Source: Escherichia coli
GTDB taxonomy: Bacteria; Pseudomonadota; Gammaproteobacteria; Enterobacterales; Enterobacteriaceae
Direction: 5' to 3' (one strand)
Assembly: GCF_003334255.1 (NCBI RefSeq)
Contig: NZ_QOWU01000080.1
DNA: 14,006 bases
A model generated the notes under the pieces. It saw nothing but the letters and a program-made list of their open reading frames with translations, had not been told where the DNA came from and made no database searches. Each line of letters opens with the position of its first letter. Position 1 is the first letter of the stretch. Both the position numbers and the translations under genes were made by a program. Shown here piece by piece: positions 2,456 through 14,006 of this stretch.

Positions 2456-3213
2456 CAGGTTGTTACCTCCGGAAAACGACGACGTAATAGCAGCACCAAT
2501 GAGCGATAAAATAGCGTATCCAATAGCCAGCCAATTAAACCAATGGTTAAAATACCCACTATTACAGCATCAGTACGCATCATCTCTTGTGAATCAATAA
2601 TCAAGTATCCCAGTCCACTGCTGGCAGCGATCAATTCTGCGCCAATTAATGCTCGCCAGCTATAACCAAAAGCCAGACGAAAACCAGTAACCACAGAAGG
2701 AGTGGCGCTTGGAATTACAATCGCCAACAGATAGCGTAAAGGTGAAAGATTCAGGCTAATGGCCAATTCCTTATGGGCTGTACTGACGCGACGCAGTCCA
2801 TCACGAGTGTTAAGAAATATGGGAAACACCGAGGCCAAAACAATAATCGAGAGTTGTGTCGTCTCCCCAATACCCAACCATAAAATCAATAATGGCGTCA
2901 TGGCCAATGGGGGGATCATACGAAAGAGTGCCAAAGGCGCGGACAATAACTGTTCCAGCCATGAGTAACGAGCAACCAAACCGGCCAACATCGTTCCAAG
3001 ACAACAACTCAGACAAAACCCTTCAAACACTCGTAATAATGAAGTGGATATATGACGAGGCAATGCGCCAATTTGCCACATATTTACGGCGGAATAAAAC
3101 ACCGTTATGGGTGATGGTAGTAAATAAGCAGAGATTAACTCCAAACTTGATAACAATTGCCAGTAAATCAATAGTAATATTGGTGTCAGCAACGGTCGCC
3201 AATAGCGCATCAC
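2455..3213 (-). CDS. ABC transporter permease (NitT/TauT family)
   Basis: 252-aa hydrophobic multi-helix protein; its stop overlaps the ATPase start and its start overlaps the stop of the upstream 185-aa ORF, suggesting translational coupling. Confidence 0.85.
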   Translation of the reverse strand: MMRYWRPLLTPILLLIYWQLLSSLELISAYLLPSPITVFYSAVNMWQIGALPRHISTSLLRVFEGFCLSCCLGTMLAGLVARYSWLEQLLSAPLALFRMIPPLAMTPLLILWLGIGETTQLSIIVLASVFPIFLNTRDGLRRVSTAHKELAISLNLSPLRYLLAIVIPSATPSVVTGFRLAFGYSWRALIGAELIAASSGLGYLIIDSQEMMRTDAVIVGILTIGLIGWLLDTLFYRSLVLLLRRRFPEVTT

Positions 3214-3767
3214 AATACCTGTATTGAATCCATTGGTGAGACGGTTAACAGCGTATTAGCTAACTGATATTTAGCCACCATCCACTGTCGTTGAACTTCT
3301 GGTGTTGCATCTGGCTGCTTACTTGCACGCCCTATTTTCAAAAATTCAGTAGTTGGCTGCCCGCCTACCGGAGCTAATGATACTTTTTTACTACGATAAC
3401 TAAATTCAAAATAGAAACGTCCAGTAAGACCTTGCTGTGCTTCGGTTTGGTCAAAGTCGACATCTAATATAAAACGATTTTCCGACACCATGCGGGTTAC
3501 CAACTCAAAACAATCACGGGCCCCCCTCCCCGGAAAGGCTGTAAATAATGCTAATTCCCGACGTTGCAGGGGCTCATCCTGCGGTGATAGCAATGAAATA
3601 GCCCTTTGTAGTAACCGAAATCCCAGTACTACGCCACCAACAGCATCATACCCATGATAATTGAAGGCATCCTGAACCGAGAAAGAAAAAAGCTGATGAT
3701 TATCTGCAACGTTTAGGGATGGCATAACCCATTGGGATACAGGGATAAGACCTGGATTAGTACTCAT
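3210..3767 (-). CDS. Hypothetical protein (185 aa), first gene of the ABC operon; paralog of the 290-820 product
   Basis: ORF overlaps the permease start by 4 bp; shares conserved blocks with the 176-aa ORF (see finding). Confidence 0.6.
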   Translation of the reverse strand: MSTNPGLIPVSQWVMPSLNVADNHQLFSFSVQDAFNYHGYDAVGGVVLGFRLLQRAISLLSPQDEPLQRRELALFTAFPGRGARDCFELVTRMVSENRFILDVDFDQTEAQQGLTGRFYFEFSYRSKKVSLAPVGGQPTTEFLKIGRASKQPDATPEVQRQWMVAKYQLANTLLTVSPMDSIQVL

Positions 3768-5656: not shown

Positions 5657-5748
5657 GATGTTGGATGTAGAGTATCTTCCTCCAGTCAGAGCCACCAACT
5701 CAGGACTGGAAAACACGAAAAAGCCCGATTACCAGTCGGGTTTTTTTG
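5657..5748 (+). ncRNA. Candidate ~90-nt small RNA (AgrB-like antitoxin), divergent from the toxin gene
   Basis: Promoter-like elements upstream and a strong intrinsic terminator at the 3' end; body contains repeat copy 2, which is imperfectly complementary to the minus-strand toxin transcript at copy 1. Confidence 0.4.
5722..5748 (+). terminator. Rho-independent terminator
   Basis: Stem GCCCGA / TCGGGT with loop TTACCAG, followed by seven T; A-tract upstream, so possibly bidirectional. Confidence 0.6.
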
Positions 5749-8865: not shown

Positions 8866-8899
8866 TTGACCAGAAGTGTTGTACAGTTTAATTGTACAA
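8866..8899 (+). promoter_or_regulatory. phd-doc promoter with two palindromic TGTACA operator sites
   Basis: TTGACC at 8866-8871; two TTGTACA-containing palindromes centred about 13 bp apart (8879-8886 and 8892-8899), immediately upstream of the ribosome-binding site. Confidence 0.45.
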
Positions 8900-8916
8900 C
8901 TCAAAGAGGAAGCACT

Positions 8917-9141
8917 ATGTTTACATGTAACTATAGCCATGCTCGCGATAACCTGGCCTCGTTGCTCGAGCTGGCGGTTGATGAAAATCAGCCAGTTGAG
9001 ATTCAGCGCCGTAAAGGTGGCGCAGCTGTACTGGTTGATAAAGACGCTTTTGAACGATACCGTAAAGCGGCTCTTGATGCTGAGTTTGCTGAGATCATGC
9101 AAAGTCATGGGACGGCCTATACGGAGCTTTCTAAGCGATGA
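8917..9141 (+). CDS. phd: Phd-family antitoxin
   Basis: 74 aa, MFTCNYSHARDNLASLLELAVDENQPVEIQRRKGGAAVLVDKDAFERYRKAALDAEFAEIM..., closely resembling P1 Phd as recalled; GAGGA 6 nt upstream; stop overlaps the doc start (ATGA). Confidence 0.85.
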   Translation: MFTCNYSHARDNLASLLELAVDENQPVEIQRRKGGAAVLVDKDAFERYRKAALDAEFAEIMQSHGTAYTELSKR

Positions 9142-9524
9142 AATTCGTTAGTTCACAGGAAGTGATTGAGTTTCATGACCGCTTGATTTCGCGTGATGGT
9201 GGCGTGGCGGGTATGCCAGAACCCGGTCGCGCTGACGCGATCATTCATCGTGTTTTGAACATGTATCATTATGAAGGTGTGACAGATATTATGGATCTGG
9301 CTGCCGTGTATTTAGTTGCTATTGCTCGTGGTCACATTTTCAACGATGCAAATAAGCGAACAGCCTTGTTTGTTGCACAGGTTTTTTTAAAACGGAATGG
9401 TGTACATATTATTAGTTCACGTATTTCGTTTGATGAAATGCAAATTATCGCTTTGAATGCTGCAACAGGAGAATATAACTGGAAGATGGTTTCTGACCAT
9501 CTTAAAGCCATTATTCTAAATTAG
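9138..9524 (+). CDS. doc: Doc toxin (Fic/Doc family)
   Basis: 128 aa with the Doc-type motif HIFNDANKRTA and GMPEPGRADAII, resembling P1 Doc; translationally coupled to phd. Confidence 0.9.
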   Translation: MKFVSSQEVIEFHDRLISRDGGVAGMPEPGRADAIIHRVLNMYHYEGVTDIMDLAAVYLVAIARGHIFNDANKRTALFVAQVFLKRNGVHIISSRISFDEMQIIALNAATGEYNWKMVSDHLKAIILN

Positions 9525-9776: not shown

Positions 9777-10034
9777 GGGGTTGAGGCCCAATCGTACGAG
9801 ATCGTACGCTAAGTTCATTTTTTGAGCAGAAGAGGGGGGGGGTAAAGAAAACGAGGGTTTTGTTTACTCTTCCCGTCAATGCCAGTAGCCATGCGGTTTC
9901 AGGGACTTTCAGTGTTAATAAACTCGGTAATCAAATCAACGTAAACCTGCCTAACAACGCCACGACTTTATTGACTTAAAATCATATAGTTAGCTTCTTA
10001 GCGTACGTTTCCGCTCCATTGGGCTTCAAACCCC
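9777..10034. mobile_element. 258-bp element bounded by gamma-delta (Tn1000)-like IRs; IS101-like miniature element, or a composite of IR remnants
   Basis: Left IR 9777-9813 GGGGTTGAGGCCCAATCGTACGAGATCGTACGCTAAG and right IR 9997-10034 (reverse complement GGGGTTTGAAGCCCAATGGAGCGGAAACGTACGCTAAG) are inverted with outer GGGG and inner TAAG; no ORF inside. Confidence 0.5.
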
Positions 10035-10120
10035 TATACCAGGCAAGACGCATTCGCCTTGCCCGTAAATATCTGAACGGTAAAAAGGTTATGGAAGAAA
10101 CCGGGGAAAATACGCCCCCG

Positions 10121-10399
10121 TCAGCGTAAGGATTTCTTTTGCAGCTCCAGAGACTCCAGTTTTTTACGCAAATCCTCTCTTTTTTTGGCATCTCTGGTGC
10201 CTGCCAGTTTAGCTCTCAACTCATCGATCTGAAGCTGTATCTCCAGCCTTTTACTGAACATTTTCTGTCTGGCATTAACATCAGCAACAATGCCGTTTTT
10301 TGTCTTCTCGGCCTTTTGTTGAAAAACATTGCTGTCCGCATGACTGGCGACCGAAGCAGAAAGCACACTAAAAAGCAGGACTGGCACACATTTTTTCAC
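10121..10399 (-). CDS. Small secreted protein (92 aa) with a signal peptide and a charged coiled-coil-like mature region
   Basis: GTG start with AGGAA 8 nt upstream; MKKCVPVLLFSVLSASVASHA signal-like N-terminus followed by a K/E/R/L-rich sequence. Confidence 0.5.
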   Translation of the reverse strand: MKKCVPVLLFSVLSASVASHADSNVFQQKAEKTKNGIVADVNARQKMFSKRLEIQLQIDELRAKLAGTRDAKKREDLRKKLESLELQKKSLR

Positions 10400-10501
10400 G
10401 GGATTATTCCTGACTCATTGACCATCAAATCACATTGGGGTAAACCGACGTATGATAAGAGATACTCTTCGGAGATATAACCCCCTGAGTATCAGGATGA
10501 A

Positions 10502-10539
10502 AAACGCAAGGAGATGTTTATGGGGTCCGCTTGGAAAAC
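10502..10539 (+). repeat. Tn3-family 38-bp terminal IR (Tn21/Tn501-like), left end of the tnpR-tnpA transposon
   Basis: GGGGTCCGCTTGGAAAACGGAAAATATCCCACGCTAAG; compare the Tn21 IR as recalled (GAAAACGGAAAATA...CACGCTAAG). Lies just beyond the tnpR stop. Confidence 0.6.
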
Positions 10540-10567
10540 GGAAAATATCCCACGCTAAGACTATTTT

Positions 10568-11158
10568 CTATACAGTAACAGTTTGCTGTTTCGCTCTAAC
10601 TCTCAGAATTGTTTGCCGTGTGGTTCGGAATTCCCTGGCAATAGCACTTATACTTGCCCCAGACTTAATGCGTTCGAGTACCTTCTGTTTTTGTTCTTCA
10701 TTTAATACCGGTGGGCGACCAAAACGTTTTCCTGCATCCCGTGCTCTTGCTATCCCTGAATAAGTTCGTTCAAGTAAAAGATCTCGTTCAAATTCAGCGA
10801 CCGCTGAAATCACTTGCATTGTCATTTTTCCTGCCGGACTGGTCAGATCAACACCACCTAATGCCAGGCAATGCACCCTGATGCCAGATTCGGTCAGTTG
10901 CTCCACTGTTTTCCTGATATCCATTGCATTACGACCGAGGCGATCCAGTTTTGTGACTATCAATACATCGCCACTTTCCAGACGATCAAGCAACCGGTTA
11001 AAACTAGGACGTTCACTGGCTGCTACTGAGCCACTAATTTGTTCTTCGATTATTCGTTGGGGTCTGACGTTAAAACCCGCGCTTTCGATTTCCCGACGTT
11101 GATTTTCGGTCGTCTGTTCCAGAGTGGAAACCCGACAATAGGCAAAAATTCGAGACAT
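10568..11158 (-). CDS. tnpR: Serine recombinase, Tn3-family resolvase TnpR
   Basis: 196 aa; N-terminal catalytic motif [22 protein letters not shown]-helix region, C-terminal HTH; divergent from tnpA. Confidence 0.9.
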
Positions 11159-11318: not shown

Positions 11319-13037
11319 ATGCCACGGCGACAAATACTGAGTAGTGAAGAGCAAGCTCGCCTGCTGGTTATACCAGATGATGAAATTATTCTGACCAGAA
11401 TGTGTTTTCTTTGTGATAAAGATATTGCTCTCATTAATAAGCACCGGCGTCCAGCTAATCGCCTGGGCTTTGCGGTATTACTCTGTTACCTGCGTGGGCC
11501 TGGATTTGTTCCGGACAAAAATAATGTTCCCCACTGTGGCGTTGTATCCAGAATTGCTTCAAGACTGAAGCTTCAGCCCGATTTATGGCATGAATATGCA
11601 GCCAGAGAGCAAACCCGCTGGGAGCATCTGGCTGAACTTTATCGCTACCTGAAATTATCTCCGTTCAGCCGAACTCTGCAAAAAGACTGCATTCGGCATC
11701 TGCATTCCTATGCCATGCGAACAGATAAAGGATTTACTCTGGCGGAGGAAATGCTCAGTTGGCTACATAACAATAATGTTATTTTCCCGTCGGTTGATGT
11801 GATCGAACGGACGCTTGCCGAAGCCGTCACACTTGCTGACAGATCTGTTTTTTCGGCACTTACGACACAACTGGGAAAGCAGCATAGATCTGCACTCGAC
11901 AGCCTGCTCATATCAGAAGGGGAACAACCTTCCCGACTTGCGTGGCTACTTCAGCCTCCCGGTAAAATTAACGGTAAAAACGTGCTGCAACATATCGATC
12001 GACTTAATTCTATCACCGCGCTGGAATTACCTGATGGTATTGAGCTTTCCGTTCACCAGAACAAATTACTCAAACTGGCGCGTGAGGGCCGAAAAATGAG
12101 CAGCAGAGATCTGGCAAAATTCACCGATATCAGACGTTACGCTACGCTGGTTTGTGTCATTCAGGAAGCCAGAGCAACATTGACTGATGAAGTTATCGAG
12201 CTACACGAACGCATTATGGGCGGTCTGTTCAGCCAGGCAAAACGCACACAAGCCGAGAGGCTTCAGTTAACAGGCAAACTTATCCAGAGCAAGTTAAGAC
12301 AATATGTTACTGTCGGTCAGGCGCTACTGCATGCCAGAAAGTCAGGTGAAGATCCCTGGGCCGCGATAGAAGATGTTATTCCCAGGCAGGAGTTCGTCAA
12401 CAGCCTGGAAGAAACACAGTTGCTGTCCCGTAAAGGTAATTTCGATCCTCTTCACCTGATCACCGAAAAATACAGCACACTTCGAAAATACGCTCCACGA
12501 ATGTTGTCAGCATTGCAGTTTGTAGCGACACCTGCGGCGCAGCCGCTCAGCGATGCACTGGATACTATAAGGGAAATATACCGTAAGCAGCTTCGTAACG
12601 TTCCGCCTACAGCGCCAACAGCATTTATTCCTGAAAGCTGGCGAAAACTGGTATTAACGCCTTCAGGCATCAATCGAAAATACTATGAGTTTTGTGTACT
12701 GAATGAACTCAAGGGGGCGTTACGTTCCGGAGATATTTGGGTAAAAGGGTCGCGTCGTTACAGAAATTTTGATGATTATCTTATCCCGGTCACTGAATTT
12801 GATAAATCCCGACAAAATGACCAGTTACAACTGGCTGTGCAGACTGATTGCCATGCATATCTTCAGGCCCGTATGACGCTTCTTGCATCTCGTCTGGAAG
12901 AAGTTAACGCAATGGCTCTTGCCGGTGAGCTGCCGGATGTTGATATTTCAGATAAAGGAGTGAAAATCACTCCGCTGGAGAACGGGGTTCTGAGGTGTAC
13001 TGGCAATAGCGGACACTACCATTTGTTCTTTTTTTAA
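11319..13037 (+). pseudogene. tnpA: Tn3-family transposase TnpA, N-terminal ~557 aa only; interrupted by IS insertion at about 12990
   Basis: N-terminus MPRRQILSSEEQARLL...RPANRLGFAVLLCYLR closely resembles Tn3-family TnpA; full-length TnpA is about 1000 aa. The last ~15 codons (LRCTGNSGHYHLFFF) are read from the IS end. Confidence 0.85.
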
Positions 13038-14006
13038 GCAGCCATCTGATGATATTTTTCCCTGAAGGCTGCCGGGGAGATATTCCCCAGACGAGAGTGA
13101 CGACGCTGACGATTGTAGAAAATCTCAATGTATTCCCGTATTACTGAGATGGCTTCATCCCGGTTATTAAAACGATAGTGGCTCAGGCTCTCATTTTTCA
13201 GCGTTCCCCAGAAGCTTTCCATCGGAGCGTTGTCGTAACAGTTACCTTTACGCGACATTGATGTTTTCAGACCAAACTGCTCCTGTATGACCCGGTAATC
13301 GTATGCGCAGTACTGTGAACCTCGATCAGAGTGGTGGATTAGCCCGGCAGGTGGGCGCTGGCTCCTGAGCGCCATAAACAGGGCTTTACCTGTCAGCTCT
13401 TTTGTCATGCGCTCTCCCATGGCGTAGCCGACAATTTCGCACGTATAAACATCTTTGATGCCAGCGAGGTACAACCATCCCTCCTGTGTGGCAACATACG
13501 TCAGGTCCGCCACCCAGACCTGATTTGGTGCTGTAGGAGCGAACGTCTGGTTCAGCAGATTTGGCGCAACTGGCAGATTGTGGTTCGAGTTCGTAGTCGC
13601 TCTGAACTTGCGTTTCTGCTTACAGCGTAGCCTTAGCTCCTTACGAAGACGTGCCAGTTGGTCACGACCAACGATGATGCCATTCTCTGCCAGCTCCGTC
13701 TGGAGCCGCCGGGTTCCATATGTTTCGCGAGTGCGGATATGTGCCACCTTAATCTCCAGTTTTAGCCGCTCATCACTTTGTTTTCTGTCTGAGGGTTCAT
13801 GCTGTACCCAGTTGTAATAACCGCTCCTGGATACACCAAATACCTGACACATCGCTTCAATGGGAAATTGTTGTCGCCATTGTTCGATTAACGCGTATTT
13901 TTCAGCGACTCCTGTGCAAAATACGCTGTTGTAGATTCAATCTGTCAATGCAACACCCCTTTCAATTATCTCTTTCGGTGTTTTGAACTTCAGTGTCTTT
14001 CTCGGT
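12991..14006 (-). mobile_element. IS3-family insertion sequence (3' part with intact orfB; orfA apparently disrupted or absent), runs off the window
   Basis: IS terminus at 12991 (TGAGGTGTACTGGCAATAGCGGACAC) resembles IS3 ends as recalled; orfB intact; only ~17 codons of an orfA-like C-terminus (TAYFAQESLKNTR) precede stops in every frame. Confidence 0.7.
13034..13852 (-). CDS. IS3-family transposase OrfB (DDE integrase)
   Basis: 272 aa with VSRSGYYNW near the N-terminus, WVADLTYV, HHSDRGSQY and CYDNAPMESFWGTLK (DDE catalytic core). Confidence 0.85.
   Translation of the reverse strand: MCQVFGVSRSGYYNWVQHEPSDRKQSDERLKLEIKVAHIRTRETYGTRRLQTELAENGIIVGRDQLARLRKELRLRCKQKRKFRATTNSNHNLPVAPNLLNQTFAPTAPNQVWVADLTYVATQEGWLYLAGIKDVYTCEIVGYAMGERMTKELTGKALFMALRSQRPPAGLIHHSDRGSQYCAYDYRVIQEQFGLKTSMSRKGNCYDNAPMESFWGTLKNESLSHYRFNNRDEAISVIREYIEIFYNRQRRHSRLGNISPAAFREKYHQMAA

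Follow-up and report, generated by a model that had tools for sequence, protein, structure and literature searches.

A predicted exported helical-hairpin gene of colicin K- and A-like plasmids within a transposon-bounded relic in Escherichia coli

What is a lone reading frame of 92 codons doing between mobile elements on an Escherichia coli plasmid? The frame, ORF92, lies at positions 10121–10399 of a 14,006-nucleotide stretch of DNA (contig NZ_QOWU01000080.1 of assembly GCF_003334255.1), which in its full length is referred to here as the window. RefSeq already carries the protein as hypothetical, and a search of the literature returned nothing on ORF92 or its accessions. Our overall reading, to which we give somewhat better than an even chance, is that ORF92 is a gene for an exported helical hairpin, native to colicin K and colicin A-like plasmids and present here in a relic of such a plasmid, and that its product is, as a guess, an envelope factor.

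A colicin-plasmid relic between transposon ends

The segment containing ORF92 and the elements around it are arranged as follows.

9777–10034, unstranded: putative miniature element of 258 bp with Tn3-type inverted repeats of 38–41 nt; left boundary of the relic
10035–10521, unstranded: 487 bp of relic backbone from a ColE1-like colicin K/A plasmid; homology stops abruptly at both ends
10037–10129, plus strand: 3′ remnant of ORF96 (last 30 codons and stop), convergent with ORF92 and overlapping its 3′ end by 9 nt
10121–10399, minus strand: ORF92 coding sequence, 92 codons and stop; RefSeq WP_032270727.1, 'hypothetical protein'
10400–10521, unstranded: conserved intergenic region separating the divergent ORF92 and exc2; native to ColE1-like plasmids
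10522–10559, unstranded: Tn3-family terminal inverted repeat, 38 nt (GGGGTCCGCTTGGAAAACGGAAAATATCCCACGCTAAG), abutting the exc2 ATG; right boundary of the relic
10568–11158, minus strand: serine recombinase (resolvase) of a Tn3-family element, lying upstream of ORF92 and co-oriented with it
11319–13037, plus strand: truncated Tn3-family transposase (model positions 2–538 of 954)
13034–13852, minus strand: IS3-family transposase, which cuts the Tn3-family transposase

The first-pass annotation had described a gene isolated between mobile elements, and this was borne out, with the miniature element ending at 10034 and the Tn3-family repeat starting at 10522. What that reading overlooked is the colicin-plasmid relic itself, which shares 95.8% identity with a colicin K plasmid and 87.6% with a colicin A-like one and in which both native neighbours of ORF92 are destroyed. 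On the left the miniature element removes most of ORF96, and on the right exc2 is cut directly after its ATG by the Tn3-family inverted repeat. ORF92 is the sole intact gene of the relic, which is a mild surprise.

The left boundary has several features of its own. Inverted repeat I1 of the miniature element is 41 nt long and 78% complementary; its repeats presumably resemble those of gamma-delta/IS101. Neither a transposase gene nor any coding capacity was found in 9777–10034. The same 258-bp unit recurs in about 250 plasmids of Escherichia, Klebsiella, Providencia, Enterobacter and other genera, unannotated in every record listed. At this copy the flanking sequences are AATGG and TATAC, with none of the 5-bp target duplication that serves as the Tn3-type criterion, and the left junction would therefore have arisen by recombination or deletion rather than by simple insertion. 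In pECOED, IS26 takes the place of the left side at the same breakpoint, and the counterpart of the gene at 13034–13852 is annotated there as 'IS3-like element IS600 family transposase'.

An E. coli plasmid of IncK2/Z type matches the window with 100% identity. The probable history that we infer is fusion to a colicin K-type plasmid, mediated by a transposon, and then deletions: loss of most of ORF96, and of exc2 after its ATG, would leave the 487 bp seen today.

Other loci of the window are recorded here as observations in their own right. An intact phd/doc-type toxin–antitoxin pair lies at 8876–9524 on the plus strand, separated by about 250 bp from the miniature element to its right; its Doc matches TIGR01550 at 85 bits. 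At 5661–5748, also on the plus strand, there is an Rfam match to the AgrB antisense RNA (68.8 bits; gathering score 40), and the record of the identical plasmid annotates dqlB, a DinQ-like type I toxin gene, in this region, which thus appears to be a plasmid-borne type I toxin–antitoxin locus. Two paralogous hypothetical proteins with 35% identity (E = 2e-19) are encoded on the minus strand at 290–820 and 3210–3767, on either side of an operon for an ABC transporter (substrate-binding protein, ATPase and permease); neither has an NCBIfam match.

In small plasmids the native order is the colicin operon, ORF96, ORF92, the intergenic region and exc2, then cer and the mob genes. There, too, ORF92 converges on ORF96 with a 9-nt overlap and diverges from exc2. 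Every small PLSDB plasmid examined encodes colicin K or a K-like pore former. ORF96 (96 aa; 2402–2692 in the colicin K plasmid L001 and 893–1183 in the colicin A-like plasmid L003) is 98% identical between the two backbones, with no family match and no signal peptide. The segment was found in 115 of 72,556 PLSDB plasmids, and among 5,426 complete E. coli genomes it occupies 125 places in 95, all on plasmids and none chromosomal. ORF92 is native to ColE1-like plasmids of the colicin K and colicin A-like kinds. That it lacks operon neighbours, as first noted, holds both in the window and in the native plasmids, whose ORF92 is flanked by genes of the opposite strand.

Coding capacity, protein family and expression signals

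The start of ORF92 carries a recognizable ribosome-binding signal.

10408–10411, minus strand: Shine–Dalgarno sequence AGGA, 8 nt 5′ of the GTG and invariant in four plasmid copies

The frame is intact and opens with GTG at 10399. Its start region has the same sequence in three divergent plasmid copies, and the N-terminus MKKCVPVLLF lines up with the N-termini of distant homologues. The reading frame is kept in three divergent lineages, represented by the window, L001 and L003, and the L003 allele has a 27-nt duplication that is in frame. Pairwise dN/dS values for ORF92 range from 0.19 to 0.49, and comparison of the window copy with colicin K plasmids revealed 7 synonymous and 5 non-synonymous changes with the frame undamaged. 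Between the most divergent alleles, however, the substitutions number 11, 8 and 13 over the three codon positions, a near-even spread which indicates that constraint is only moderate. An identical protein is encoded on 149 contigs, and the 90%-identity cluster of the protein has 307 member sequences.

An ORF on the opposite strand of ORF92 measures 113, 101 and 78 aa in the three lineages. Given this variable length, its two database members and their label, "hypothetical", its identification with the historical exc1 was rejected, and it appears to be a shadow ORF that is almost never called.

Could ORF92 itself be a chance frame, or might the DNA have a non-coding role, as a cer-type resolution site, a regulatory RNA or the control region of exc2? 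Frames of such lengths are common in the window, which contains 89 ORFs of at least 40 aa; the segment comes from the near-cer part of ColE1-like plasmids; and ORF92 is more variable than its flanks. The 30-nt cer core, however, is absent from the window and in native plasmids lies beyond exc2, so that overlap with a cer site or with Rcd RNA was rejected, and Rfam has no match in the relic segment. A non-coding function would not account for protein-level homologues whose identity is about 30% and whose signal peptides are conserved, and the insertion in the colicin A-like allele is in frame. We regard this explanation as exceedingly improbable and take ORF92 to be, by all sequence indications, a genuine protein-coding gene.

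The first-pass annotation had let its reading hang in part on conservation of the frame, and ORF92 is conserved, both in the 149 contigs with the identical protein and in homologues down to about 30% identity. An hmmsearch of 1.84 billion cluster representatives returned 35 proteins with full-length matches at E ≤0.001, some 20 of them distant full-length relatives with 27–40% identity. Since these relatives keep the length, the N-terminal hydrophobic export signal and the core motif, ORF92 belongs to a real protein family. In alignment A3, which contains 24 members including the window protein, the core reads KSxxTSxxIVAxVxxxQ...RLxLQxxIDxLRxxxGGTxD...L..L.KQ and is followed by a short C-terminal helix; the window protein carries RLxIQLQIDELRxxLAGTxD. 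Residues Q45, Q55, L61, R62 and L84 are near-invariant. We define the family by a length of about 88–130 aa, a signal peptide, the core and the short C-terminal helix, all of which are present in ORF92.

Profile searches of Pfam, NCBIfam, PHROGs, PADLOC and the PDB found no representation of the family. ORF92 matched 0 PADLOC families, and the best PHROG matches (E = 0.012–0.08) were different for each member. Searching 50,697 phage records by tblastn with two homologues gave no match, and a scan of IMG/VR gave no relative. The family is small, undescribed and carried as cargo on mobile elements, in line with the cargo status proposed at the outset: all 125 E. coli places are plasmid-borne, and the homologues are stand-alone genes on plasmids and prophages.

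The settings of the homologues vary. One in a Salmonella prophage lies between Q/HicAB and a holin gene, a classic moron position; those on large plasmids adjoin chaperone–usher fimbrial operons and AraC-type regulators; another is close to TraY/ParE. No neighbour is conserved across the plasmid and prophage contexts examined. A longer, 129-aa branch of the family (L016–L018, 6001–6390) begins with what is either a membrane anchor or a signal. Large E. coli plasmids often carry this branch (235 index blocks list it), always as a lone gene with long non-coding flanks, situated between chaperone–usher fimbrial genes.

Signals for expression were sought around ORF92. In the intergenic region, only 3 of about 122 positions differ from each of two divergent plasmids, and a promoter-like site for exc2 was found on the plus strand at 10429–10456. 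A sigma-70 promoter search of the ORF92 strand gave no convincing match; a TATCAT hexamer lying back-to-back with the exc2 −10 element was seen by eye. Downstream of the ORF92 stop there is a terminator-like hairpin whose stability does not exceed that of shuffled sequence (z = −0.12). In the window plasmid, transcription might reach ORF92 by read-through from the co-oriented resolvase gene.

The local copy might accordingly be an inert passenger, neither expressed nor selected, in a relic too young for the frame to have decayed. The two native neighbours have been destroyed, the ORF92 strand is without a promoter match, and the relic copies in large plasmids of IncK2/Z type are 99.6–100% identical, which points to recent common descent. 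In addition, the ORF92 copy of another large E. coli plasmid, of IncF type and 127 kb (L005, 5001–5319), is 91% identical but has acquired an in-frame stop (KKR*DL) along with numerous non-synonymous changes; it is a pseudogene, decaying outside the native context, where the stop indicates that the gene is dispensable. The promoter and terminator nulls, weak codon bias and the IncF stop together suggest that the local copy may be inert even though the family is real. Other observations argue against inertness. All 122 nt of native sequence upstream of ORF92, as far as the exc2 ATG, survive, and no part of the fragment is better conserved; the exact protein occurs on 149 contigs; and the 7 synonymous and 5 non-synonymous differences from colicin K plasmids have brought no damage to the frame. 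An inert passenger would moreover concern the local copy only and is compatible with a functional gene in the native plasmids. We consider it a doubtful explanation, with an appreciable chance nonetheless of being correct, and return to the reading of ORF92 as a gene for an exported protein.

Predicted export and fold of the ORF92 protein

The product divides into two parts, the sequence MKKCVPVLLFSVLSASVASHA and, after the predicted cut, DSNVFQQKAEKTKNGIVADVNARQKMFSKRLEIQLQIDELRAKLAGTRDAKKREDLRKKLESLELQKKSLR.

10337–10399, minus strand: signal peptide, codons 1–21 (MKKCVPVLLFSVLSASVASHA); predicted signal peptidase I cut between Ala21 and Asp22 (SHA/DS)
10124–10336, minus strand: mature part of 71 aa; in the AlphaFold model, helix 23–67, G-T-R turn 68–70 and helix 71–90

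For a Sec signal peptide cut by signal peptidase I we looked for a positive n-region, an uncharged h-region of about 10–15 residues and small residues at −3 and −1, which is a crude rule and not SignalP. ORF92 has K2 and K3, an uncharged hydrophobic core (VPVLLFSVLSASVA) with a mean Kyte–Doolittle value of 2.69, and S19-H20-A21 before D22. Among the 49 ORFs of at least 60 aa in the window it alone passed this rule, for an expectation of 0.135 per shuffled window. A hydrophobic N-terminal segment is present in 23 of the 24 members of A3, and the modelled helix begins at residue 23, just after the predicted cut. The first-pass proposal of a secreted protein with a signal peptide is upheld by these features: ORF92 is predicted to have a Sec-type signal peptide for signal peptidase I, with cleavage probably after Ala21. 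The lipobox L-[AS]-[GA]-C is absent and the only cysteine is residue 4, before the hydrophobic core; a bacterial lipoprotein, Lpp-like or otherwise, was rejected as an identity for this reason.

The mature protein has a calculated mass of 8.3 kDa and a pI of 10.1, and 42% of its 71 residues are charged (12 K, 7 R, 6 E and 5 D). The description of a lysine/glutamate-rich mature region is therefore roughly right, with the correction that the protein is rich in Lys and Arg more than in Glu. AlphaFold2 was run on a shallow and on a deeper alignment, with concordant results, and pLDDT exceeds 92 over residues 31–90. Heptad patterning is moderate, with hydrophobic residues at 7 of 13 and 3 of 5 a/d positions. 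Of the coiled coil first proposed, the all-helical character and some heptads remain, but what is modelled is a helix–turn–helix hairpin and not a classical long coiled coil.

Helix 1 has over twice the length of helix 2, so that about half of the longer helix lacks an intramolecular partner. Most likely, to judge from the model, the protein self-associates or binds another envelope protein through this free part. The course we propose is that the Sec pathway would export the pre-protein, signal peptidase I would cut it after Ala21, and a basic protein of 8.3 kDa would be released into the periplasm; there it would fold as a hairpin in which a GT(R) turn joins a first helix of 45 residues to a second of 20, with the free part of helix 1 mediating self-association or binding to an envelope protein.

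Structure searches with the ORF92 model retrieved generic hairpins only. The comparison with Lpp, whose C-terminal Lys cross-links to murein, is instructive in both directions. Lpp and ORF92 share a small helical mature part, heptad-like hydrophobic spacing, a signal peptide and a periplasmic location (predicted for ORF92), but ORF92 has no lipobox, is predicted to form a hairpin instead of a single helix, and ends in Arg and not Lys.

A small, all-helical hairpin with a predicted export signal would also suit a periplasmic stress chaperone of the Spy/CpxP/ZraP kind or an adhesin like FadA, and some plasmid homologues lie beside fimbrial operons and AraC-type regulators. That neighbourhood, however, is not conserved across the family, and no match to any such family was found in Pfam or NCBIfam. 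In particular, LTXXQ and Metal_resist were unlisted at E ≤10 for the window protein and at E ≤0.1 for the 24 members, which led us to reject a Spy/CpxP/ZraP chaperone. FadA of Fusobacterium, a secreted helical-hairpin adhesin, is 14% identical to ORF92, a match no better than those of dozens of unrelated hairpins. The suggested stress role thus found no family match behind it, the suggested adhesion role no adhesin family and no family-wide fimbrial setting, and we judge either identity to be highly unlikely.

Several further candidates were rejected. FlxA-like (PF14282) reached an i-Evalue of 0.34 for the window protein and is not among the families matched by other members. VirB5 (TIGR02791) scored 15.4 and 16.2 bits in two members against a cut-off of 132, and the PDB profile search returned no VirB5/TraC chain. 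Matches to TraP and to a bacteriocin-immunity PHROG were far below threshold and inconsistent between members.

Candidate roles in the envelope and their meaning

Three points suggest a link of ORF92 to the Tol system. One IMG record names a family member 'TolA-binding protein'. Colicins K and A, which the host plasmids encode, are Tol-dependent pore formers. In one prophage lineage (L010, 3517–3918; also L011–L013) a homologue lies 133 nt downstream of a gene for a 133-aa lipoprotein, with lipobox LSGC, that consists of nearly nothing but a TolA C-terminal domain (Pfam E = 1.8e-31); this gene is itself downstream of an AntA-domain gene, with the antiterminator Q gene further upstream, and its product could be a Tol decoy. 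ORF92 might then bind TolA or another Tol–Pal component and modulate Tol-dependent import of colicins or phages, or colicin release. Its IDELRAKL also locally resembles IDSLRGQI of CpoB, and the N-terminal coiled coil of CpoB/YbgF is, as predicted for ORF92, periplasmic and helical, with the short motif ID-x-LR-x-x-I; ORF92 lacks the TPR domain.

Comparison of profiles did not bear the resemblance out. With a CpoB query sequence validated against PDB 2XDJ, hhalign gave a probability of 7.3% over 16 columns of the coiled coil, and no Pfam hit to TolA_bind_tri was listed at E ≤10 for the window protein or at E ≤0.1 for the other members of the 24. ORF92 is too short for a TPR, and its identification as CpoB/YbgF, the 'TolA-binding protein', was rejected. 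The TolA-like neighbour is absent beside P0092, the homologue closest to the copy in that prophage, and in all other contexts with readable flanking genes. We therefore think a Tol-system binder very unlikely.

Other small envelope proteins of mobile DNA offer points of comparison for the envelope factor that we favour. The lipoproteins Bor of lambda and TraT of plasmids are products of 'moron' envelope genes of phages and plasmids. ORF92 resembles them as a small stand-alone gene on mobile DNA with an exported (here predicted) product; it differs in having no lipobox and no sequence or fold relationship to either. A second comparison is with the entry-exclusion genes of ColE1, exc2, which encodes a lipoprotein, and mbeD/exc1. 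As the native neighbour of ORF92, exc2 diverges from the same 122-nt region and has an envelope product, but the ORF92 protein is predicted to be soluble rather than lipid-anchored and is confined to a colicin K/A-like subset of plasmids. The wider distribution of exc2 is reflected in its 90%-identity cluster, with 912 members against 307 for ORF92; in the window it is exc2 that is destroyed and ORF92 that survives. Homology to Exc2 or MbeD was rejected, as NCBIfam gave no match to either and tblastn with Exc2 found exc2 itself only.

Comparison of the colicin K and colicin A-like plasmids shows ORF92 to be far more diverged than the genes on either side of it. For ORF92, dS is 0.278 and dN 0.087; the corresponding values are 0.055 and 0.015 for exc2 and 0.077 and 0.014 for ORF96. 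In the upstream region that the two plasmids share, just 3 of 122 positions differ. ORF92 thus appears as an island of divergence inside a conserved backbone, which we count as a mild surprise. An old allele in a young backbone is typical of genes that face other organisms, such as those for specificity, immunity or exclusion, and is a hint in that direction; the pattern fits simple allele exchange equally well.

As a stand-alone, moron-type envelope factor, the ORF92 protein would bind some component of the periplasm or outer membrane that colicins, phages or conjugative DNA use on entry. A role in exclusion or protection is the likeliest single function we can offer, but it is speculative, and we hold it to be rather unlikely as matters stand. 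Bolder, and a distinctly long shot, is the proposal that ORF92 stands for a new class of small soluble proteins, encoded by colicin plasmids and prophages, that serve specificity or exclusion in the periplasm; a fast-diverging hairpin would bind the import route of competitors (Tol, Tsx/OmpF or conjugative entry) and protect the carrier independently of the cognate immunity protein. If this were true, the divergence island at ORF92 would reflect an arms race.

For annotation, an isolated "hypothetical protein" becomes a member of a defined family of predicted exported helical hairpins with a known native context, its copy in a large plasmid becomes a probable relic of fusion with a colicin plasmid, and a widespread, previously unannotated putative Tn3-type miniature element is documented beside it. 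Should the guess of protection or exclusion prove right, colicin K and A plasmids and some prophages would carry a periplasmic factor that has gone unrecognised, and the finding would bear on competition among gut bacteria and on the defence of hosts by small mobilisable plasmids.
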